The translations under genes and the position numbers were made by a program. From an uncultured Puniceicoccaceae bacterium (GTDB lineage Bacteria; Verrucomicrobiota; Verrucomicrobiia; Opitutales; Oceanipulchritudinaceae): DNA of 64,000 bases. Shown here piece by piece: positions 7,907-39,669 of this stretch. The stretch's first letter is position 1. The number at the start of each line of letters is the position of its first letter. Where the stretch lies: contig CAWVVV010000002.1 of assembly GCA_963933835.1 (NCBI GenBank), positions 320,001 through 384,000 of the forward strand, written 5' to 3'. The notes under the pieces were generated by a model, which saw only the letters and a list, made by a program, of their open reading frames with translations, was not told the origin of the DNA and made no database searches.

Positions 7907-9759
7907 CTACTTAGCAACGGTGGATTCGATCCTCCCCTTGAGCTTCAGTTCTTTCGCTATGAGGTCGTGGAGATCGTGGCCGTGATAAGGTTTAGGTAGA
8001 AATTTAACCGAGTCGAAACACGGCCAGTTTCGACCGATCATATTCATGTTATAAGCACTGGTGAGGATAAATAGGGTGTCTGGCAGAAGGTCTCTCGCTT
8101 GTTCGATGAGCTGCTTCCCTGTAAGCCGAGGCATGGTATGATCCGTCACGACGGCATCAAAGGATTGATCGCTCAGCTCGATCGCATCGAGCGCGGCTTG
8201 GCCGTCGGCAACGGAGGTAATCTCGAAGCCCCGTGTATCCAGATAGCTAGACATCGCCATGCGGAGGAGCTCTTCATCTTCCACAAAAAGGATACGGAAG
8301 GGTTTCCCGTCGGCGCCGGTTGGGGCATTTTCACTGGAGGGTTTGGCACTTTGCCCACTCACGACACTCGGCATCCAGATGTCGAATTGCGTGCCGACAC
8401 CTTCTTCACTTTCGACGGTGATTTTACCGCCGTTCTCGTGCACGAGATTCTCGACCGCGTTTAGGCCGAGGCCGTTCCCTTCCGGACCTTTGGTCGTGTA
8501 GAAGGCGCGGAAGATCTTCTTTTTACTTCAGGGGCCATGCCGACGCCTGTATCAATAAAGCTGATACACACCCAGTTCGCTGAGGCTTTGTCGATTTCTT
8601 CTCCATGGAGCTCGGAGGGCAGGGCCTTTGTCTCGGCCTTGATCGTAAGATTTCCGCCCTTCGCGGCCATGGCGTCACGCGCGTTGACGGTGAGGTTAAT
8701 AAAAATCTGATTGAGCATGCCAGGCCCGATCGAGACAAAGCCCTCTTCTTTGGGGACCTGCAGATCGAGTTCGATATGTTCCCCAAGAAGGCGACTCAAG
8801 ACGTCGCGATTAGTTTTGAGGTAGTTTGTTAGCTCAGTCTCCCCGTCCAGCGGTGCCTGATGCGGATTAAAGGTCATGAGGTCCTGCACGAGGCTCTTTC
8901 CACGGCGGGTGGCTGTGAGGATATTGCGCGCGAGGTCATTCTCTGGGTCACGCAACATCATGAGCTCGATATTTGCCTGTACCGCGGCGAGCAGGTTATT
9001 GAACTCATGAGCGATGCCTGATGAAAGCTCGCCCACTGCGACCATTCTTTCGCGTTCATACGTCCCGCGCTGGAGGCTGCCTTCGCCGGTTATGTTACGC
9101 AGGGTACAAAGGTGAAGATAGCGTCCACGTTCTCGAGTGAAGGCGACACGTGTTTCCACGACGGTCGTCTCACCTTCAGGTTGCGAGACATTGATGCGTC
9201 CGACGTGATCGGTATCGAGCTCGTGGGGCCATTCTGATCCGGTGAGTTCTTCCAGCGGTGAATTGAGGATTTTGGTCGCGGCGCGATTGGCAAAAACGAC
9301 CTTCTTGTCTTCCCCGATCGCGACGATGCCCTCGGTCGTATTTTCGAGGATGTGGTTTAGGCGGGTGTGCTCCGAACGGAGGTCAGCGGCCAGTTTGTGC
9401 CGTTCAAGCGAGTTACGTATACTGCGCTGAAGGAGCGCGATGCTGTAGTCCTCCTTGGAGAGGCAGTCCTGTGCTCCTGCCTGCATCGCGCCGAGTCCAA
9501 GCTCTTCAGTCTCGATCTCGGTGAGGACAATAATGGGGGTCCTAGGAAAAATCTTTTGTGCCTGAGCCAGCGTCTCAAGCCCACGTGATCCGGGAAGGTT
9601 GAGATCGAGGAGGAGGAGGTCCCAACCGGCGCTTTTTTTCGATGCCGCCACTGACAGACTCTCAACAAAATCCGTGAAGATCGGATCCGTTATGCAGCTG
9701 AAGCGCTGTTTTAGAAGGATACGATCAGTAGAGTTATCCTCAACGACAAGGATACGCAT
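7907..9759 (-). pseudogene. Hybrid sensor histidine kinase/response regulator (REC-PAS-HisKA-HATPase-REC), split by a 1-nt frameshift near 8520-8524
   Basis: MRILVVEDN...DLNLP; IAHEFNNLL; N-box LTVNARDAM; DTGVGM, then KKIFRAFYTTKGPEGNGLGL in the other frame continuing into ORF 7907..8443; may be an intact gene with a sequencing error. Confidence 0.85.
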
Positions 9760-9934: not shown

Positions 9935-10687
9935 ATGACGGATCCCCGCATTCAGCCTCCCGATGACACCGTAGTGATGGTGCCTGCTCGCCTAGCTTCC
10001 CAACGTTTCCCGCGGAAGTTACTCTATGAAATCGAAGGTCGTCCGCTCATTCTCTGGACGGCTGATCGCCTAAAGTCAGAACTGCCGGGCTGGCGGGTTG
10101 TTTACGCGGTGGCCGATGAAGAGCTCCAGTCAGTTTTAGAGGCGGAGGGCTGCGAGACGGTGATGACGGATCCGGCACTGGCGAGTGGAACAGACCGCTT
10201 GGCCGCAGCAAACAAGGAGGTCGGTGCTCGGTATGTGATCAATGTGCAGGCAGACGAGCCCCTCGTTAAGGGCTCTGAGGTGCGGCTTCTCGCTGAGCTC
10301 GTACAAGGTGATTTCGATATCTCAACGCTAGCGACCCCTTTCCGCTCACACGAAGACTTCCTCAACCCAAACCGCGTCAAAGTTATCTGTGATGGCGACG
10401 GGCGTGCCTTCTATTTCTCACGGAGTCCGATCCCGCATAGTCGCGATGGTGACGAGCTCGGGGGGGGCGAAGGATTTTGGCACCTTGGGCTTTACGCCTA
10501 TCGGGCGGAGGCGCTGGAGCGATTTTCTAGCTTACCTCCATCGCGCCTCGAATCGATCGAGAAACTTGAGCAGCTCCGTGCTCTGGAAAATGGACTGCGG
10601 ATCGGCGTTGGTGTCGTCGAAGAGGGTGGAATCGGAATCGATACCCTCGAAGACGTGGAGCGATTTTTAGCGGCAATGAAATCCTGA
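9935..10687 (+). CDS. kdsB: 3-deoxy-manno-octulosonate cytidylyltransferase (CMP-KDO synthetase)
   Basis: PARLASQRFPRK, SGTDR, NVQADEP, YFSRSPIP, EKLEQLRALENG. Confidence 0.97.
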   Translation: MTDPRIQPPDDTVVMVPARLASQRFPRKLLYEIEGRPLILWTADRLKSELPGWRVVYAVADEELQSVLEAEGCETVMTDPALASGTDRLAAANKEVGARYVINVQADEPLVKGSEVRLLAELVQGDFDISTLATPFRSHEDFLNPNRVKVICDGDGRAFYFSRSPIPHSRDGDELGGGEGFWHLGLYAYRAEALERFSSLPPSRLESIEKLEQLRALENGLRIGVGVVEEGGIGIDTLEDVERFLAAMKS

Positions 10688-25273: not shown

Positions 25274-26416
25274 ATGCCAAGCTCCGCACCGTCATCGTTT
25301 CCTGTCCTTTTATTCGCCTCCACAGAGCGCTCTGCTGATGCGCTCTATTTTGGTGGGGTCGAGGTGCCTGATGCCTTCATTGCCTTCGGCTATGGTTCAC
25401 AGCGGATTGCTGTCTTGAGTCGGCTTGAGATTGCTCGGGTGCGTAAGGAAGGCTGTTTTGACACCTGCCTGTCGTTGGAAGAATGCCAAGAGGCGGTAAA
25501 ACAGAACGGCGGGATGGGAACACCTGTAGAAGTCGTTGCTTTGATTGCGGAGGAGTGGGCGATCGAGGGTTTTGAAATCGGCTATGATTTTCCAGCGGGC
25601 CTCGCTAACCAACTCATAGGCGCAGGTGTCACCCTACGGGTTGTTGAAGGAGCGCTCTTCCCTGAACGTGAGATCAAGGCCGATATCGAGGCCGATGCAA
25701 TTCGCGAAGGTAATGCAGCTTCCGCTGCAGGCTTTAAAGTCGTGGAAAAAGCACTGCGTCGAGCCACCATTGGTCGCGGAAAGAAACTCTATCTGGATGA
25801 CAAGTTGCTCACGTCTGAGCGCCTTCGGCAAATGATCGATATTGCCTGCCTTGAGCGTAGCGCGGTAGCGAACGGAACGATCGTCGCAGGCGGAGACCAA
25901 GCTTGTGACCCCCATTGCCGAGGCACTGGGCCATTGCGTGCAGACGAGTTCATCATCGTCGATATCTTCCCGCGTGTCACAAGAACTGGATACCATGGCG
26001 ATATGACCCGTACGTATCTTAAGGGACAGGCGAGCAAGGAACAGAAGTCGCTTTACGCTGCGGTCTTTGACGCGCAGCAGGCGGCGATCAAAGAGGTGAA
26101 GGCCGGCAAGAGTGGTACGAAAATTTATAAAGGTGTGTGCGCTTCTTTTGAGGGCAAAGGCTACGCGACCGAGGTCGTTGATGGTACGCCAGTGGGCTTC
26201 TTTCATGGCCTCGGCCATGGTCTTGGGCTTGAAGTGCACGAAGCGCCCCGCGTCGGCGCAGTGAAGTCGCGCTTAAAAAAGGGGCAAGTCATCACGGTTG
26301 AGCCAGGGCTCTATTACCCCGGTCTTGGAGGTGTTCGCGTCGAGGATGTCGTGCGTGTGACGAGCGGCGAGCCGGAGATGCTTTCAAAGCATCCATATCG
26401 CTGGCACATCAAATGA
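25274..26416 (+). CDS. Xaa-Pro peptidase, M24B family
   Basis: DPH, IIVDIFP..TGYHGDMTRT, FFHGLGHGLGLEVHEAP, TVEPGLY, GVRVED. Confidence 0.93.
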   Translation: MPSSAPSSFPVLLFASTERSADALYFGGVEVPDAFIAFGYGSQRIAVLSRLEIARVRKEGCFDTCLSLEECQEAVKQNGGMGTPVEVVALIAEEWAIEGFEIGYDFPAGLANQLIGAGVTLRVVEGALFPEREIKADIEADAIREGNAASAAGFKVVEKALRRATIGRGKKLYLDDKLLTSERLRQMIDIACLERSAVANGTIVAGGDQACDPHCRGTGPLRADEFIIVDIFPRVTRTGYHGDMTRTYLKGQASKEQKSLYAAVFDAQQAAIKEVKAGKSGTKIYKGVCASFEGKGYATEVVDGTPVGFFHGLGHGLGLEVHEAPRVGAVKSRLKKGQVITVEPGLYYPGLGGVRVEDVVRVTSGEPEMLSKHPYRWHIK

Positions 26417-26470
26417 TGAATGATGAATGGTGAATGGTGTGATGTCTTAAATCTTTTCTATTCATCATTC
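26412..26470. repeat. AATGRTG heptamer tandem (x4) with short inverted partner
   Basis: AATGATG AATGATG AATGGTG AATGGTG ... ATTCATCATT. Confidence 0.65.
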
Positions 26471-26479
26471 AATATTTCC

Positions 26480-27577
26480 TTACCACGCCTTCTGCCAACC
26501 AAGCGTCAGGGCCCAATCGGTTTCGAGTTGGTAGCCATTGAGGTTTTGCCAGAGCGGAAGGCGAAGATCGATGGCGAATCGGTGCCCCTTGAGGATGCCG
26601 CCGTCGATGAGGCTGTTTACGCCGAAAATGGCTTCGATGGATTCGCCGCCGTAATTGTCGCTAAAGGCCGTCGTGACGGTTTCACGGCTCGGCGCGAAGG
26701 GTGGATTCAGTAAAAGGTCTTCCTGCTCCCCGCGCATTTTTCCCGACCATTGGTAGGCGAGGCCGGTGCTGATGCCGAATGAATTACCGAGGGGCAGGGA
26801 ACCCCATGCAGTCGCCTTGAACTGGTCGCCGAGGCGGCAGCCTTGATCGTTGTGCCCGGTACGAATTGTTCCAGCTAACTGACCCCCGAAGGAGACGCTT
26901 TCGCGCTGCTCCACCCAGGTGAAACTTGGCAGGAGGTCGTAGGTGCCGGATCCAAGTTGCATCGGTGCTGGAAGCTGGCGTTCAAAGAGTCCACCCATGC
27001 CCGGTTCGCTACCTATCGATGGAGCGGGTATTGCATCCGATTCAGTGATGGATCCGGTGGGGAGGCTGATCCCGAGGCCGACATGAGCACGGCTGTCCTC
27101 ATCACGGTAAACGGAATAGAGGGCGCTTAGCTTGATGTCGCTAACCCCTTCGGTCTCGGTCGTAAATACATCGCTGCCGCCGTTGAAGTTAAGCAGAGGT
27201 GTCGCCATGCCGAAGATGCGGTGATCCATCTCAGTGGACGTATAGTTGGCCATCGCCATGAGGGTGAGCTGATCGCTCGGGGCATGCATGAAACCCAACA
27301 TGTGCATATCCATCGTCATCTCCTCGGGCGTGATGGTGTAGTTCGCCGCGAAGACTGCATCGCTTGAGGCGCTGGTTGTTCCGTTTCGCATACCGTCCAT
27401 CTGCATTCGCATGAAGCGATAGGAGAGCATGCTTTCGCCCTTAGCGTGAATGTGTTCACCCATGATGGAGATGGGGGCATGGGCGTCGATACGGCCGGTA
27501 TCGAATGAATGAGCAAAGCTCGATGTGCTGAGTAATACGCCGGTTAAGAACGTAGAAGGGTAAGAAAATCTTTTCAT
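26480..27577 (-). CDS. His/Met-rich outer-membrane beta-barrel (transporter/phenol MetA-degradation-like family)
   Basis: Signal peptide; HAPISIMGEHIH, MTMDMHMLGFM, GISLPTG, MQLGSGTYD; terminal W. Confidence 0.75.
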   Translation of the reverse strand: MKRFSYPSTFLTGVLLSTSSFAHSFDTGRIDAHAPISIMGEHIHAKGESMLSYRFMRMQMDGMRNGTTSASSDAVFAANYTITPEEMTMDMHMLGFMHAPSDQLTLMAMANYTSTEMDHRIFGMATPLLNFNGGSDVFTTETEGVSDIKLSALYSVYRDEDSRAHVGLGISLPTGSITESDAIPAPSIGSEPGMGGLFERQLPAPMQLGSGTYDLLPSFTWVEQRESVSFGGQLAGTIRTGHNDQGCRLGDQFKATAWGSLPLGNSFGISTGLAYQWSGKMRGEQEDLLLNPPFAPSRETVTTAFSDNYGGESIEAIFGVNSLIDGGILKGHRFAIDLRLPLWQNLNGYQLETDWALTLGWQKAW

Positions 27578-27719
27578 CTGAAGTGTTTGCGTAAGGTGGG
27601 TGCCCGAGGTTCAGAATTTTACTCAGGCGGGTTGGATGTAGGCCAAAGGCGATTCAGCGCTACAGATCAATCACCTACATAGTAAAAAGTGTAGATGATT
27701 TTGGATACGGTTGGATGTC

Positions 27720-28109
27720 TTACGCTAACCGCGGAGGTGGCCCAAGTGGAGTGTCGATGTACTCGCAAGGGGGCGATGGATCGCTGAGCTGAAGCTCCTG
27801 CGTTCGAGGATGAAAAATGAGTGCAACTCCGAGGCTTCTGAGCGGGAGGAGACGGACTTCCTGCTGAAGCCGGAATTGATCAGCCTGCCAGGTATTGTCT
27901 TTCGTGTCTTCGACAAAGGCACAGTAGCCACAGCTTTCTTCTCCGTTGAAGGTGTAGGAAAGCGCGTCACCGATCGGCATTTGTTCCGAGTATTGGGAAA
28001 ACATCGTTGCCCAGCCGTAGGCTTGGACCAACGCCACATGCAGGCCGCTCAAGCACAGAAAGCAGAGAGCAGTTGCGAGAAGGAAGCAGCGTTGCAGTTT
28101 TGAAGGCAC
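27720..28109 (-). CDS. Exported leader protein with CxxC and C-terminal PPPR (candidate arrest peptide)
   Basis: Hydrophobic N-terminus, TFNGEESCGYC, ends DTPLGPPPRLA*; upstream of the OM barrel gene. Confidence 0.7.
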   Translation of the reverse strand: MPSKLQRCFLLATALCFLCLSGLHVALVQAYGWATMFSQYSEQMPIGDALSYTFNGEESCGYCAFVEDTKDNTWQADQFRLQQEVRLLPLRSLGVALIFHPRTQELQLSDPSPPCEYIDTPLGPPPRLA

Positions 28110-28215
28110 AGGACGAAAACGGGGTCATTTGTCGGTTTTTCGTCCCGCAAGTGTCAACCGATTTTGCGCAAGAAGCGGGTGGGCAAAGCGCAGGTTTCTA
28201 TGCTAATCTGTTTCC

Positions 28216-29058
28216 ATGGCATCGCATTATGACTGCATCGCAACCGCGATTGATCTCTTGGTGAAGCGACACGCGGAGGTACCGAGTCTGGAGGAACTCA
28301 GCGGTCAAGCTGGTTTGAGCTTATCCCACTTTCAGCGGCTCTTCACGGAGTTCGTCGGGATCAGTCCGAAGCGTTTCTCCCAGCACCTGTTTTTGCAGGA
28401 CGCGAGGGAGCGGCTTCAACGAGGAGAAGCGGTGCTGGATGCAGCCTTGGGTTCGGGACTTTCTGGACCAGGACGATTGCATCATCTGACCGTGCATTGC
28501 GAGGCGGTTACGCCAGGGGAACAGCGTTCAGGAGGCAAGGATCTGCGGATTGAATATGATTGGAGCTTAACCCCTTTCGGCTGGGGTCTCTTTGGGAAAA
28601 CGTCGCGCGGCTTGTGCTATTTTGCGCTCCATGAGACTGCCTCGGAGGAGGCCCTCGCGGCGCTCAAGAAACGGTTTCCTGCCGCGGATCTGGAGGAGAA
28701 GTTAGGACTAGCGGCTGAGCTTTGTGCTCGGATCTTTTCTTCGGAGCCAAGTGGGCCAATAGCGTTGCATCTTCGGGGAACAAATTTCCAGATCCAAGTC
28801 TGGCAGGCCTTGATGGCAATTCCCGATGGATTGGCCGCAAGCTACGGATCCGTCGCTCGCAAAATAGACCGCCCAAAAGCTTCGCGTGCGGTCGGCACTG
28901 CGGTGGGAAATAACCCCGTCGCGATCCTTATTCCGTGCCATCGTGTGCTGCGCGAGAGTGGGGCGATCGGTGGCTACCGCTGGGGCTTGGATAGGAAGCG
29001 TGCGCTCCTGGCCTGGGAGCGAGCCCGGCCTGCGAATAGCAGCTCAGTAGGTAGATAG
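28216..29058 (+). CDS. AraC-HTH / methylated-DNA-protein-cysteine methyltransferase fusion (Ada-like without N-terminal Zn domain)
   Basis: SLSHFQRLF..GISPK, GTNFQIQVW, RAVGTAVG.NP, IPCHRV. Confidence 0.93.
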   Translation: MASHYDCIATAIDLLVKRHAEVPSLEELSGQAGLSLSHFQRLFTEFVGISPKRFSQHLFLQDARERLQRGEAVLDAALGSGLSGPGRLHHLTVHCEAVTPGEQRSGGKDLRIEYDWSLTPFGWGLFGKTSRGLCYFALHETASEEALAALKKRFPAADLEEKLGLAAELCARIFSSEPSGPIALHLRGTNFQIQVWQALMAIPDGLAASYGSVARKIDRPKASRAVGTAVGNNPVAILIPCHRVLRESGAIGGYRWGLDRKRALLAWERARPANSSSVGR

Positions 29059-29083
29059 CCGAAATTGAGGGCGTGTGGGTGCC

Positions 29084-29115
29084 TTGACTTTCCAATGTAG
29101 CCTGTGCTACATTGG
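29084..29115 (+). promoter_or_regulatory. sigma70-type promoter (TTGACT-18-TACATT) overlapped by a perfect 10-4-10 palindromic operator
   Basis: CCAATGTAGC-CTGT-GCTACATTGG at 29092-29115, 4 nt before the ATG of the metal-binding protein. Confidence 0.75.
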
Positions 29116-29119
29116 TCAT

Positions 29120-30058
29120 ATGTTTAAACTTGGATGGTTATTGTTAGCGCTTTTCATTGGCTTGCCGCTGGCGGGACAAACGGAGCCGTATCGGATCGTT
29201 GCGACGGTTGCGATGGTGACGGATATTGTTCGCCAAGTGGCGGGTGATCGCGCCGAGGTCACGGGGCTACTGGGCGAGGGGATCGACCCTCACCTCTACA
29301 AGCCCACCCGAACCGACATCGGTCAACTGCTTCGCGCGGACGTAATTTTCTACAATGGCCTCCTTCTTGAAGGTAAAATGTCCGACGCGCTCATCCGCGC
29401 TGCGACCGCAGGCAAGAAGGTCCACGCGGTCACGGAACTGATCGACGAAGGCTATCTTCTCTCACCCGAAGAATTTGCAGGCCACTATGATCCGCATGTT
29501 TGGATGGACCCTAGCGCGTGGGCGAAGGCGGTTGATGTGGTTGAGGCGAAATTGACAGCGTTTGATCCCGCGAGTGAAACGACCTACGCGACAAATGCGG
29601 CGGCATTGAGGGAACGGATCCAAAAACTGGATGCGTATGCTGAGCAGGCTCTAAGCAGTGTGCCTGAAAAACAACGTGTGCTCGTAACCGCGCACGACGC
29701 CTTTAACTATTTCGGCCGTCGCTTCGGCTACGAAGTTGTTGGCATCCAAGGTATCTCAACGGAGTCAGAGGCAGGTGTGCTTGATTTGGAGAACCTCGTG
29801 AATCTCCTCGTCGAACGAAAAGTTCGCGCCGTATTTGTCGAATCAACCGTTTCTGAGCGCAATATTAAGGCACTTATTGCGGGTGCAGCAGCTCGAGGAC
29901 ACACCGTTGTCATCGGAGGTGAACTCTTTAGTGATGCGATGGGGCAGCCTGGTACCTATGAGGGAACCTATATCGGGATGATCGATCACAACGCATCGAC
30001 GGTGGCGCGAGCGCTCGGGGGCACTCTGCCTGAAGGTGGATTTTCAACTGCGGACTGA
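29120..30058 (+). CDS. Mn/Zn/Fe ABC transporter substrate-binding protein (TroA-like)
   Basis: [34 protein letters not shown]. Confidence 0.95.
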
Positions 30059-30062
30059 ATCA

Positions 30063-30914
30063 ATGGGAACTGACCGCACACTGCTTCACCGTACCGGTAT
30101 TTCGGATACACGAGAACCGCTTTCGACGCGCCCCGAACACTCGGCGGAAAGTCCGCTCTCAATTCACGCGATGACGGTGGCCTACCACCGGCGCCCAGTG
30201 CTGTGGGATGTCGATTACGACGCCCCATCAAATAAGCTGATCGCGATCGTTGGTCCAAATGGGGCGGGCAAGAGCACCATGATAAAGGCCTGCTTGGGTC
30301 TCACTCAACGCGCCTCTGGCCAAGTCGAATACTGGGGGCGATCTTATCGCAGTCAGCGCAGTCGGGTGGGGTATGTGCCGCAACGCGAAACCGTCGACTG
30401 GGACTTCCCGGTTTCCGCCCTCGATGTCGTTTGTATGGGGCTTTACCGCGAGATCGGCTGGCTGCGCCCTGTAGGTAAAAAACATAAAGCCCTCGCTTTG
30501 GAATGCCTCGATAAGGTGGGCATGGCTGACTACGCTCAGCGCCAGATCAGTCAGCTCTCGGGTGGCCAGCAGCAACGGGTTTTCCTTGCACGGGCGCTCG
30601 CACAGCAGGCGGATCTCTATTTCATGGACGAGCCCTTTGTCGGGGTCGATACAGCCACCGAGCGTTCGATTATAGCGGTTTTGAGGGATCTGCGTGATTC
30701 AGGAAAAACAGTCATTGCGGTCCATCATGACTTGCCGACCGTTCCTGAGTATTTTGATGAAGTCGTCTTGCTGAATATGCGGGTCGTTGCCTCTGGGCCT
30801 GTCCCGGAAGTGTTCACGCAGGACAATTTGCAGAAGACTTATGGTGGCCGGCTTACGCTTCTTTCCGAGGCGGCAGAAGCGATGGCTCGGGCGGCGTCTG
30901 GATTGGACTCTTGA
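30063..30914 (+). CDS. Mn/Zn ABC transporter ATP-binding protein (TroB-like)
   Basis: [32 protein letters not shown]. Confidence 0.95.
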
Positions 30915-32281
30915 TCGATATTTTGATGTCTCCGATCGTATTAGAAAATCTGCTACTGCAGCTCGATCCACAAGTCGTGTGGGAGACGCTGACGCTGCGC
31001 AGTGGATACAACTCCACGGTTGTTATCGTGGGGACGACACTCCTTGGAATCAGCGCCGGCGTCGTGGGTGTCTTTGCGCTTTTACGCAAACGCTCCTTGA
31101 TGGCTGATGCACTGAGTCACGCCACTCTTCCGGGAATTGGATTGGCCTTTATCATCGCGACTTGGCTGGGATATGAAGGCCGCAGCTTGCCAATACTCCT
31201 GACGGGGGCCGCCATTACGGGTGTGCTCGGGGTCGTGACAATCCAATGGCTTGTGCGCTCTACGCGTCTTCGCGAGGACGCAGCGATTGGCATCGTGCTC
31301 AGTGTTTTCTTTGGCATTGGAGTCGTGATCCTCAGTATCGTTCAGTCGATGAAGGCGGGGACAGCCGGTGGCATAAATCATTTTATCTATGGCCAAACGG
31401 CTGCAATGAGTGCGGCGGATGCTAAGCTCATGGGGCTCATCGCACTGGCCACGGTCTTCTTCGCCTTCTTCTTGCTTAAGGAATTTGCTGTTGTGTGTTT
31501 CAATGACGCCTTTGCTCAAGTGACAGGTTGGCCAGTTTCGAAAATCGATCTCCTGATGATGGCTTTGGTCGCGCTGGTTACGGTGGCTGGTTTGCAGGCG
31601 GTAGGCCTTATCCTGGTCGTTGCAATGTTGATCATTCCTGCGGTTGCGGCGCGTTTTTGGACCGAGCGATTATGGAAACTCATTTTGCTCGCGGGTCTGA
31701 TCGGGGGCGTCTCGGGCTATCTCGGATCGGTCGCTTCAGCGCTGTTGCCGCGGAAGCCAGCGGGGGCGGTCATCGTATTGACGGCGGGGATGATTTTCAC
31801 CCTGAGTATGTTTATCGCTCCGTCGCGTGGTGTCTTAGCATCGGTCTTACGCCGTATGAGGTTGAAACTCCGAATCGCGACGGATCACCTCCTGGAGGCG
31901 ACGGTCGATGAGGACGAGAGCACGAGAGGTTCTCTATCCGTCGCAAACACTAAGGTTCTTCAGAAGAAGCGAAATTGGGGGGCATGGCTTCACTTCGCAG
32001 TGCCGCTTTTTGTTCGTGTGAAAGGATTCGGACGCTTTGAGAAGGGGGCTTTTCTAGCCTCTGAAGTGGGACTTCAACGAGGACTCCGCGTGGAACGAAA
32101 TCATCAGCTCTGGGAACAATATCTTCTCTCATATGCGGATATCGCGCCGGGGCACATTGACTGGACGGTCGATCAAGTGGAGCACGTCTTGAGTCCCGAA
32201 CTGATCAATGAATTAGAAATCCTCATACAAGAGCGGACGGGTGAATCCTTTGAAATCGCATCGCGGGGAGGTATAGCGTGA
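30911..32281 (+). CDS. Mn/Zn ABC transporter permease with C-terminal DtxR-like domain (TroC-like)
   Basis: [17 protein letters not shown]; tail [15 protein letters not shown]...[11 protein letters not shown]. Confidence 0.92.
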
Positions 32282-39111: not shown

Positions 39112-39669
39112 TTAGACGCGGCCGAGGTAGCTTTTGTCTTCGGTCGATACCTTGATTTTGTCGCCCGTCTTGATAAAGAGCGGGGTCTGAACGACGAGGC
39201 CCGTCGCGGTGGTTACAGGCTTGAGGGCAGCGCCGGAGGTATCACCCCGGAGAGCAGCAGGCGCTTCGGTCACTTCCATTTCAACGGAGACTGGTAGTTG
39301 AATCTGGACAGGATTATCATCGACGAAGAGGACGTCGACGGGGTTGCCCTCATCGAGAAAGTCTTTCGCCTCTTCGACGAGATTTTCGGCAAGGATGACA
39401 TCTTCGAACGTCTCAGGGTCCATGAAGTGGTAGCCCATGTCGTCGATGTAACTGAACTCGAGACGCTTTGTGTCTGTCGTAAGAATATCGACCGTTTCGG
39501 TGGAGCGAATCTTCTGCGTCGTGCTCGAACCGGAATTGAGGTTGCGCATATTGACCTGAACAAAACCAGCTTGGCGGCCTTGCGACCGTTGTTGGGCATC
39601 GAGAACGAGATGCGGCTGTTTGTTGTAGAGGATTACATTCCCTTTTCGGATTTCAGTCGGAGTAGCCAT
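39112..39669 (-). CDS. efp: Elongation factor P
   Basis: IRKG, FMDPETFE, RGDTS..KP.T..TG..VQTPLFI..GD.IKV.T. Confidence 0.95.
   Translation of the reverse strand: MATPTEIRKGNVILYNKQPHLVLDAQQRSQGRQAGFVQVNMRNLNSGSSTTQKIRSTETVDILTTDTKRLEFSYIDDMGYHFMDPETFEDVILAENLVEEAKDFLDEGNPVDVLFVDDNPVQIQLPVSVEMEVTEAPAALRGDTSGAALKPVTTATGLVVQTPLFIKTGDKIKVSTEDKSYLGRV

Follow-up and report, generated by a model that had tools for sequence, protein, structure and literature searches.

We examined a leader open reading frame (ORF) and the outer-membrane barrel gene behind it in a 64,000-nucleotide (nt) stretch of DNA (the window; GenBank assembly GCA_963933835.1, contig CAWVVV010000002.1, positions 320,001 to 384,000) from an uncultured Puniceicoccaceae bacterium of the Verrucomicrobiota. 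An earlier note on this DNA, made from the sequence alone, had proposed that the ORF is a metal-sensing ribosome-arrest leader that controls the barrel gene. Both genes lie on the minus strand, with the following features (positions are those of the window).

27720-28109, minus strand: leader ORF of 129 amino acids (aa), with a GTG start and a TAA stop at 27720-27722
28041-28088, minus strand: hydrophobic export-type segment, residues 8-23 (16 residues), recognized by inspection, with a K/R-containing N-terminus before it
27912-28040, minus strand: putative sensor region, residues 24-66 (Q29, W33, M36, A49, T53, G56 and CGYC), delimited from the alignment
27921-27932, minus strand: CGYC, residues 60-63, read from the sequence
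27750-27911, minus strand: spacer, residues 67-120, length kept and sequence poorly conserved (~0.4-1.4 bits per column)
27729-27740, minus strand: PPPR codons, residues 124-127, putative arrest motif, followed only by Leu, Ala and the stop
26480-27577, minus strand: MetA-like 'transporter'-type barrel of 365 aa with a signal peptide, starting 142 nt past the leader stop

The leader ends in DTPLGPPPRLA followed by TAA, and on re-reading, its length, hydrophobic N-terminus, CGYC motif and C-terminus were all as the earlier note had described them. The hydrophobic segment is kept in homologs and, judged by eye, probably acts as a signal peptide or membrane anchor. Small residues occupy alignment columns 30 (S/T/G) and 32 (A/G in 81/81 sequences), which would fit a signal-peptidase site before W33. 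The Atlas record of the leader protein uses an alternative start at the internal Val25, which would delete the hydrophobic N-terminus. The closest relative of the leader apparently starts there too, its first residue aligning with leader residue 25; this relative (P0001, 73%) shares an 8270-nt contig with the closest relative of the barrel (P0152, 78%). The long form of the leader is supported because homologs align over residues 1-24.

An exhaustive HMMER search placed the leader in a family of 473 clusters (50% identity) at E<=1e-3, most of them 120-140 aa long and aligned end to end, and the best-matching contigs were mostly labelled Verrucomicrobiota. With an 81-sequence profile, a sample of 301 genomes from across the phylum yielded the family in 70, usually as one copy, and a scan by conserved motifs located at least 578 leader loci in species-representative genomes. 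Verrucomicrobial lineage labels stand on 70 of the best 80 of these loci, with Pedosphaera, Prosthecobacter, Chthoniobacter and Limisphaera among the names given; the other 10 are labelled, for example, Acidobacteria, Proteobacteria, or Bifidobacterium or Klebsiella metagenome-assembled genomes, which we take to be binning or labelling noise. The window leader matched nothing in Pfam or NCBIfam, 81 family members gave no meaningful Pfam match, and 13 members gave no NCBIfam match. A word-indexed protein search with the leader returned 65 matches, none with a Pfam domain and all of those named called 'hypothetical protein', and the Atlas places the ORF among Verrucomicrobiota 'hypothetical' clusters. 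Literature searches on DUF2946 and copper, on CutF, CruR and arrest peptides, and on verrucomicrobial TonB or copper upstream ORFs (uORFs) returned nothing on a verrucomicrobial PPPR family. On its sequence, we assign the leader to an unannotated verrucomicrobial family with the motif order LQxxAWxxM-CxxC-PPPR.

Motif conservation was counted over 150 listed representatives of the 473 clusters. CxxC is present in 147 of the 150, and the last 25 residues hold PPP in 130, PPP[RK] in 118 and PPPR in 103; the 20 representatives that lack PPP are mostly xPPR variants or look truncated. For alignment A1 (81 sequences), the window ORF was combined with 80 sequences chosen from these 150, favouring end-to-end matches, and the invariance of PPP within it is partly due to that selection. 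A sample of the best 80 of the at least 578 loci was therefore informative, because these loci were picked only by the N-terminal motifs FDGxHPCxxC and LQSxAWxxM and their C-termini form an independent sample. All 80 ORFs are complete, with PPP in the last 25 aa of 69, PPP[RK] in 66 and PPPR in 63. The residues after PPP number 3-7 in 69/69, and the distance from the first Cys of CxxC to the first Pro is 61-63 in 63 of the 69, with a family mode of 62; among the listed representatives with both motifs, its 10th-90th percentile range is 62-67. The earlier note had asked whether CxxC, the terminal PPPR and its distance to the stop are conserved, and all three proved to be so.

Information content in the family alignment is high at residues 22-66 (G22, H24, Q29, A/G32, W33, M36, A49, T53, F54, G56, C60 and C63) and again at 121-127 (P-P-x-P-P-P-R), and low in the stretch of ~50 residues between, where length is kept. 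M36, C60 and C63 are invariant in A1, and H24 is frequent, with 'HPC' in 42/81 members. Kept across hundreds of homologs, these motifs are far beyond chance. A conserved head, a ruler kept in length only and a stop-adjacent proline motif make up the pattern reported for CruR, in which the CXXC-RAPP distance (~45 residues) is constant within 1-2 residues in >2000 proteins and altering it impairs regulation (PMC9426467).

The closest resemblance of the C-terminus is to Rhodobacter capsulatus CutF, whose arrest motif is given as P109EPEGPPPRL118; in the work as reported there, changing PPP to PAP abolishes Cu control of CutO, EF-P is involved, and cross-linking puts the stalled chain in the ribosomal tunnel (bioRxiv 10.1101/2025.02.05.636593). 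CutF and the window leader are both small ORFs that combine a signal-like N-terminus with a Cys motif and a C-terminal proline motif (GPPPRL in CutF, GPPPRLA with one residue more in the window). Each is the first gene of its operon, and RNA structure lies between leader and next gene, in cutFOG and in the window likewise. It differs from CutF in its Cys motif (CxxC versus CxxxC), in the distance from that motif to PPP (60 residues versus ~45), in an extra conserved LQxxAWxxM helix, with no sequence homology detectable, and in the downstream gene, an outer-membrane barrel rather than a multicopper oxidase. The RNA differs too: a local stem-loop covers the Shine-Dalgarno sequence in CutF, whereas the candidate helix in the window joins the leader stop region to the start region of the next gene. 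A published filter for 'CutF-like' proteins (<150 aa, PP among the 15 C-terminal residues, a signal peptide, and a neighbouring gene on the same strand no more than 1000 nt away) collected, in the survey as described, 5,334 proteins, the bulk of them from Pseudomonadota and Bacteroidota and a minor share from other phyla (PMC9973294). The window ORF passes these filters with 129 aa, PPP 3 residues from its end, a barrel gene 142 nt downstream and an N-terminus that is signal-like by inspection.

CruR (Bp2923 of Bordetella pertussis; PMC9426467, PMC12992588) resembles the leader in its CxxC, in the conserved distance from there to a C-terminal arrest motif (putative in the leader), in an N-terminus that looks like a signal, and in its position before an outer-membrane transporter with a C-rich intergenic region (162 nt in CruR, 142 nt in the window). 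Its TonB receptor and PepSY-type partners are also found behind some leader-family members. In contrast to the PPPR of the window, the CruR motif is RAPP and EF-P-independent, its ruler is 45 rather than 60 residues, and the DUF2946 profile PF11162 of the CruR family does not match the leader; CruR acts through Rho-dependent termination and does not need its signal peptide. RAPP/RGPP uORFs, small secretory or membrane peptides with a near-C-terminal arrest motif, occur before TonB receptors and copper genes across phyla; the survey that describes them sought RAPP-like motifs, and its main text contains neither 'PPP' nor 'DUF1559' (PMC12992588). SecM, VemP and MifM are likewise exported or inserted nascent chains whose C-terminal arrest is tuned from outside the ribosome and whose pause remodels mRNA structure ahead of the next gene, but they monitor Sec or YidC and regulate its components, whereas the window family precedes cargo-type envelope genes and carries a Cys motif in its sensor. 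From these analogies and from the sequence, we propose, at a probability of roughly 0.6, that the leader is a cis-acting exported arrest-peptide sensor, a uORF of the CutF/CruR type.

Shared architecture and a tail equal to that of CutF could also mean that the leader is merely a divergent member of DUF2946, the family of CruR and CutF. The Atlas gave weak leads in this direction: a feature score of 0.91 to DUF6660, DUF2946 and DUF6769 clusters, a Verrucomicrobiota cluster at that score with PF11162 on 23% of its members, and one structural neighbour auto-named 'putative DUF2946 domain-containing protein'. A 118-aa ORF at L052:1501-1854 (minus strand) has a weak DUF2946 match (E 0.003), a His/Cys-rich centre and the tail PPVPPPRA, and may be an intermediate between RAPP-type and PPPR-type leaders. 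However, PF11162 (gathering score 23.7 bits) did not match the window ORF at E<=1, nor the 81 family members, and its two weak matches in the whole source genome both lie away from the leader. In the 301 sampled genomes, PF11162 had matches in 27 at E<=0.01 and above the cut-off in 5, none of which coincided with leader-family loci when the lists of places were compared; the genuine DUF2946 genes of the phylum end in RAPP or RGPP. An hhalign comparison of A1 with a shallow DUF2946 alignment of only 8 sequences gave a probability of 2.7% and aligned the two only around CxxC, and the 60 versus 45 intervening residues and the extra LQxxAWxxM motif also separate the families. We consider such membership somewhat unlikely. 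What stands of the earlier note's view that the family works like CutF and CruR is the tail, which equals the tested CutF motif GPPPRL, and the conserved architecture; DUF2946 membership was not detectable. We file the leader family, by analogy, as one that would work like CutF and CruR, and leave homology-based membership aside.

The gene after the leader had been described as a His/Met-rich barrel, which was confirmed: residues 23-130 contain 15 Met and 7 His among 108. PF13557 scored 20.3 bits on the window barrel (E 6e-4; cutoff 22), and 3639 homologs were found at E<=1e-5, most of those listed, at 50-68% identity, carrying PF13557 in precomputed annotation. The few listed homologs with names other than 'hypothetical protein' were called 'transporter' (Lentimonas, Coraliomargarita, Haloferula and Opitutaceae). 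Barrel orthologs conserve HAPISIMG(D/E)HxH, MxMxMDGM, MTMDMHM and EMDH (alignment A3), and among solved structures, only PDB 4rl8 gave a profile match, at a marginal E of 0.67. The mature N-termini in A3 carry either a His cluster, as in the window, or Cys-Cys (e.g. ...SCCP...), and more distant barrels behind leaders begin CDxCGC. In a marine metatranscriptome, one 215-nt contig matched the barrel gene exactly (27176-27390), and none covered the leader or the spacer. This hints weakly at expression of the barrel in the sea, with DNA carry-over possible.

A leader lies directly upstream in 10/16 barrel-homolog loci with the same gene order and enough upstream sequence. Among 65 metagenome barrel loci (36-54% identity, many of them near-duplicates), 22 have a leader upstream, and all 22 of these leaders end with PPP; the same scan also gave one identical barrel fragment without a leader. 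Six leaderless barrel loci contained no substitute PPP-ended small ORF upstream.

A same-strand gene follows the leader in nearly every locus examined, and its identity varies widely. Of 34 downstream ORFs at loci from two genome searches, 17 encode TonB-dependent receptors (Plug), 3 MetA-like barrels (1 below the cut-off) and 3 PEP-CTERM proteins (2 below the cut-off), and 11 had no Pfam match. In the 80-locus sample, 27 next genes make up a single MetA-like barrel cluster (26 of them matched by a barrel profile built with the window protein among its sequences), 25 are of the prepilin-type N_methyl/DUF1559 class, 9 are TonB receptors, 9 form an unknown cluster that includes a response regulator, and 3 form a PEP-CTERM cluster; the remainder is a pair and singletons, including a histidine kinase. 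That varied, unrelated envelope genes stand behind a constant leader argues for a facultative cis-regulatory cassette rather than a fixed protein partner. The earlier note had asked whether the next gene is always a metal or outer-membrane gene: an outer-membrane or envelope gene follows in most loci, but copper-related genes are found in few operons only.

Several loci had further arrangements of their own. The DUF1559 loci, which lie within L093-L159 (25 of the 80 loci L091-L170), often continue with a protein of ~260-300 aa, in some with a PEP-CTERM motif. Genome G313 has two leaders, one (L081, 3536-4225) directly before a TonB C-terminal-domain protein and one (L082, 3532-4092) before an extracytoplasmic function (ECF) sigma factor. 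Locus L085 (G161:C6) has tandem leaders at 9948-10430 and 8957-9475, ~0.5 kb apart, with a third ~28 kb away on the same contig.

Wider flanks were inspected at 20 loci. One operon (L075) runs from a TonB receptor to PepSY_TM and then a CusF-domain protein, another (L074) also encodes a CusF-domain protein, and L077 has a divergent cupredoxin and an AhpC/TSA-type protein; SCO1/SenC lies inside the DUF1559 operon of L139. CusF in L074 and L075, PepSY_TM in L075, the cupredoxin by L077, SCO1/SenC in L139 and the Met/His motifs of the barrels are hints of copper. With a handful of neighbours and motif chemistry behind it, copper as the ligand is only a guess, at roughly even odds. The same arrest peptide might instead answer a non-metal cue, with CxxC reporting periplasmic thiol-disulfide state or oxidative folding, or the whole leader reporting Sec or envelope export load, and thereby tune envelope proteins generally. 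What the downstream genes have in common is envelope location rather than metal chemistry (DUF1559 in 25/80, PEP-CTERM, TonB_C, the ECF sigma factor, the histidine kinase and the response regulator). The CutF model, as outlined in its report, takes disulfide formation as the default state (bioRxiv 10.1101/2025.02.05.636593), and RAPP/RGPP uORFs are also described before DsbA and thioredoxin genes (PMC12992588). Yet some operons do hold copper-linked genes (CusF twice, the cupredoxin and SCO1/SenC), CxxC, the invariant M36 and the common H24 ('HPC' in 42/81) together resemble a soft-metal site, and the barrels have conserved Met/His or Cys-Cys N-termini. We regard a non-metal cue as distinctly unlikely.

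With the family alignment, AlphaFold2 predicted the leader with a predicted local distance difference test (pLDDT) score of 88.5 and a predicted template-modelling (pTM) score of 0.56. Helices are predicted at residues 4-20, 23-43, 46-54 and 61-86, the last three at pLDDT >90, followed by a coil tail at pLDDT 69-84; CxxC lies at the start of the last predicted helix. Foldseek found no match to this model in the PDB at E<=0.001, and a sequence search of solved structures gave nothing useful. In the proposed sensor, the force that sets pause duration could plausibly come from this last helix as it packs against the bundle, whether or not a metal or a disulfide takes part. A different account of the model is that the leader is a stable small envelope protein, membrane-anchored or periplasmic (e.g. 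a metallochaperone or thiol oxidoreductase), that partners the downstream outer-membrane protein, with PPxPPPR as a polyproline docking motif. The predicted helical bundle at 4-86, the strong conservation of the first ~70 residues, and the CxxC at a helix start, as in thiol-disulfide proteins and metallochaperones, would all suit it. Against it, the proteins encoded downstream are too diverse to be one binding partner, the spacer is conserved in length and not in sequence, PPP lies 3-7 residues from the stop in 69/69 and equals a tested arrest motif, the intergenic gaps are long, and no structural relative was found in the PDB. CutF and CruR are demonstrably translated, yet their mature proteins were not detected. 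We think a stable partner protein improbable.

The RNA between leader and barrel has the following features.

27578-27719, minus strand: intergenic region of 142 nt (C 0.30, G 0.16)
27669-27700, minus strand: hairpin of 11 base pairs (bp) with one G-U pair and a 10-nt loop, 19 nt past the leader stop (AAUCAUCUACA / UGUAGGUGAUU), present in the minimum-energy fold
27719-27729, minus strand: 5' arm of a closing helix (GUUAGCGUAAG), reaching from Arg codon position 3 across Leu, Ala and the stop to 1 nt beyond
27585-27595, minus strand: 3' partner arm of that helix (CUUACGCAAAC), lying at -18..-8 relative to the barrel AUG, in the expected ribosome-binding region

The spacer folds better than its dinucleotide shuffles (z -3.1, with 2/200 shuffles as good; z -2.2 in a slightly different frame). 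The 11-bp hairpin exists as the earlier note had described it and is part of that fold, but it makes no contact with the barrel start region and lacks a U-tract, and a terminator scan found no terminator-like site. The closing helix, of 10 bp (7 + 3 bp around a 1x1 internal loop), is present in both the minimum-energy and the centroid fold, and its duplex energy is -13.7 kcal/mol versus -7.6 +/- 2.2 for shuffled partners (p=0.004). By its predicted pairing, it is a better switch candidate in the window than the 11-bp hairpin. The C-G skew of the spacer is in the top 3.2% of 142-nt stretches in the 64-kb window, and C exceeds G in 9/11 leader-barrel spacers and in 22/22 metagenome spacers. Intergenic gaps between leader and barrel range over 60-345 nt. 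Searching 26300-28400 against Rfam at E<=1 for a riboswitch or other known RNA gave only a spurious snoRNA match, and in a simple scan for sigma-70 promoters, the sole promoter-like site was at the 3' end of the barrel gene.

From the observed anatomy, conservation, gene linkage and RNA pairing potential, we infer export, pausing, a ligand, and a direction and route of regulation as follows. The N-terminal hydrophobic segment would take the nascent leader into the Sec translocon during translation, and peptide-bond formation would slow at the PPP codons, which lie three codons ahead of the stop. While PPP occupies the peptidyl-transferase centre, the exit tunnel holds ~30-40 residues, and a docked translocon ~20-25 more; the CutF authors, in their account of the tunnel, use ~30 residues (PMC9973294). 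The 60-residue spacer would thus put CxxC just outside the channel, while the 45 residues of CutF and CruR would leave the Cys motif in the vestibule. At PPP, the spacer would have just moved the sensor region (Q29, W33, M36 and CxxC) past tunnel and translocon, so that it emerges on the outer side of the inner membrane. The length of the pause would depend on the fate of CxxC there, which could bind a soft metal (copper being the most plausible) or form a disulfide and fold. The signal may prolong the pause, as in CutF, or relieve it, as in CruR.

Pause length would in turn set barrel expression, most likely, in the window, by a structural route. A ribosome paused with Pro125/126 in its P and A sites covers roughly the next 12-15 nt. 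A footprint of that size would cover exactly the 5' arm of the closing helix, so the ribosome paused on PPP, sitting over the Arg-Leu-Ala-stop codons, would block the helix with -18..-8 and free the ribosome-binding region of the barrel. Once the ribosome terminates and leaves, the closing helix could re-form, which would be the logic of CutF and SecM in another geometry. Alternatively, as in CruR, the paused ribosome could relieve or permit termination by Rho within the C-rich 142-nt spacer.

Several findings weigh against the arrest-sensor reading. Export was rated by inspection of the N-terminus only, and the confident AlphaFold2 model would also suit a product that folds into a stable protein. 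The proline motif alone did not stall a reporter in the CutF study of 2023, which makes PPP alone a weak staller in the presence of EF-P (PMC9973294). A leader precedes only about one third to two thirds of the barrel homologs, few neighbours are related to metals, and the DUF1559 pilin-like genes, the second-largest downstream class (25/80), have no known metal role. For the structural route, lengthening the folded fragment by 14 nt removes the closing helix from its minimum-energy structure, and the equivalent stop-start pairing is significant in 3/11 leader-barrel loci and in 8/22 metagenome loci, the latter representing about three lineages when near-identical rows are considered. Masking of the start region was rejected as a family-wide rule, with -20..+3 of barrel starts mostly predicted to be unpaired. 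For the Rho route, the C>G skew continues into the 5' coding region of the barrel.

Other genes of the window lie nearby. Divergent from the leader, an Ada-like gene at 28216-29058 (plus strand) fuses an AraC-type helix-turn-helix to an O6-methylguanine methyltransferase domain; the 106-nt region between it and the leader contained no sigma-70-like promoter in a simple scan. Beyond it, ~1 kb upstream of the leader-barrel pair, a ZnuA/ZnuC/ZnuB-type Mn/Zn importer cluster occupies 29075-32281 (plus strand), with a ZnuA-type binding protein (PF01297, E 2.5e-76) followed, by the appearance of their sequences, by an ATP-binding cassette (ABC) ATPase-like ORF and a 456-aa permease-like ORF with a long C-terminal extension. 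The importer is a further, weak hint of metal. The source genome encodes EF-P and Rho-type genes, and its single EF-P match (PF08207 N-terminal domain, E 4.7e-16) lies inside the window, at ~39490-39657 (minus strand).

Metal-sensing exported arrest-peptide uORFs are already established for CutF and CruR; what is new here is a PPPR-type, mostly verrucomicrobial and unannotated family with its own sensor head and a longer ruler. To our knowledge, exported arrest-peptide sensors of extracytoplasmic conditions have so far been studied in these two proteobacterial cases. The family would extend the arrest-sensor principle to a phylum with no characterised example, to an EF-P-sensitive PPP motif and to new targets, and the longer ruler makes a testable prediction of sensor position at arrest. 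It offers a hypothesis and a name for hundreds of 'hypothetical proteins', and it marks the MetA-like barrels with Met/His motifs, abundant in the sea, as probable targets of metal regulation. The cassette of sensor, ruler and PPP is compact, and a portable switch is conceivable.

A bolder conjecture, which we think rather unlikely, is that PPPR leaders arose apart from DUF2946 and stayed largely confined to Verrucomicrobiota, that their helical domain folds or binds copper outside exactly when the ribosome is at PPP, and that the resulting pull gates many envelope genes. If true, the family would be a general, modular 'outside-sensing' translational switch that is not restricted to copper, with a ruler of 62 residues that spans tunnel and translocon. 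The gated set would then include MetA-like barrels, TonB receptors, TonB, DUF1559 pilin-like and PEP-CTERM proteins, sigma factors and two-component genes, and the leaders would provide a first functional handle on the very large DUF1559 family.

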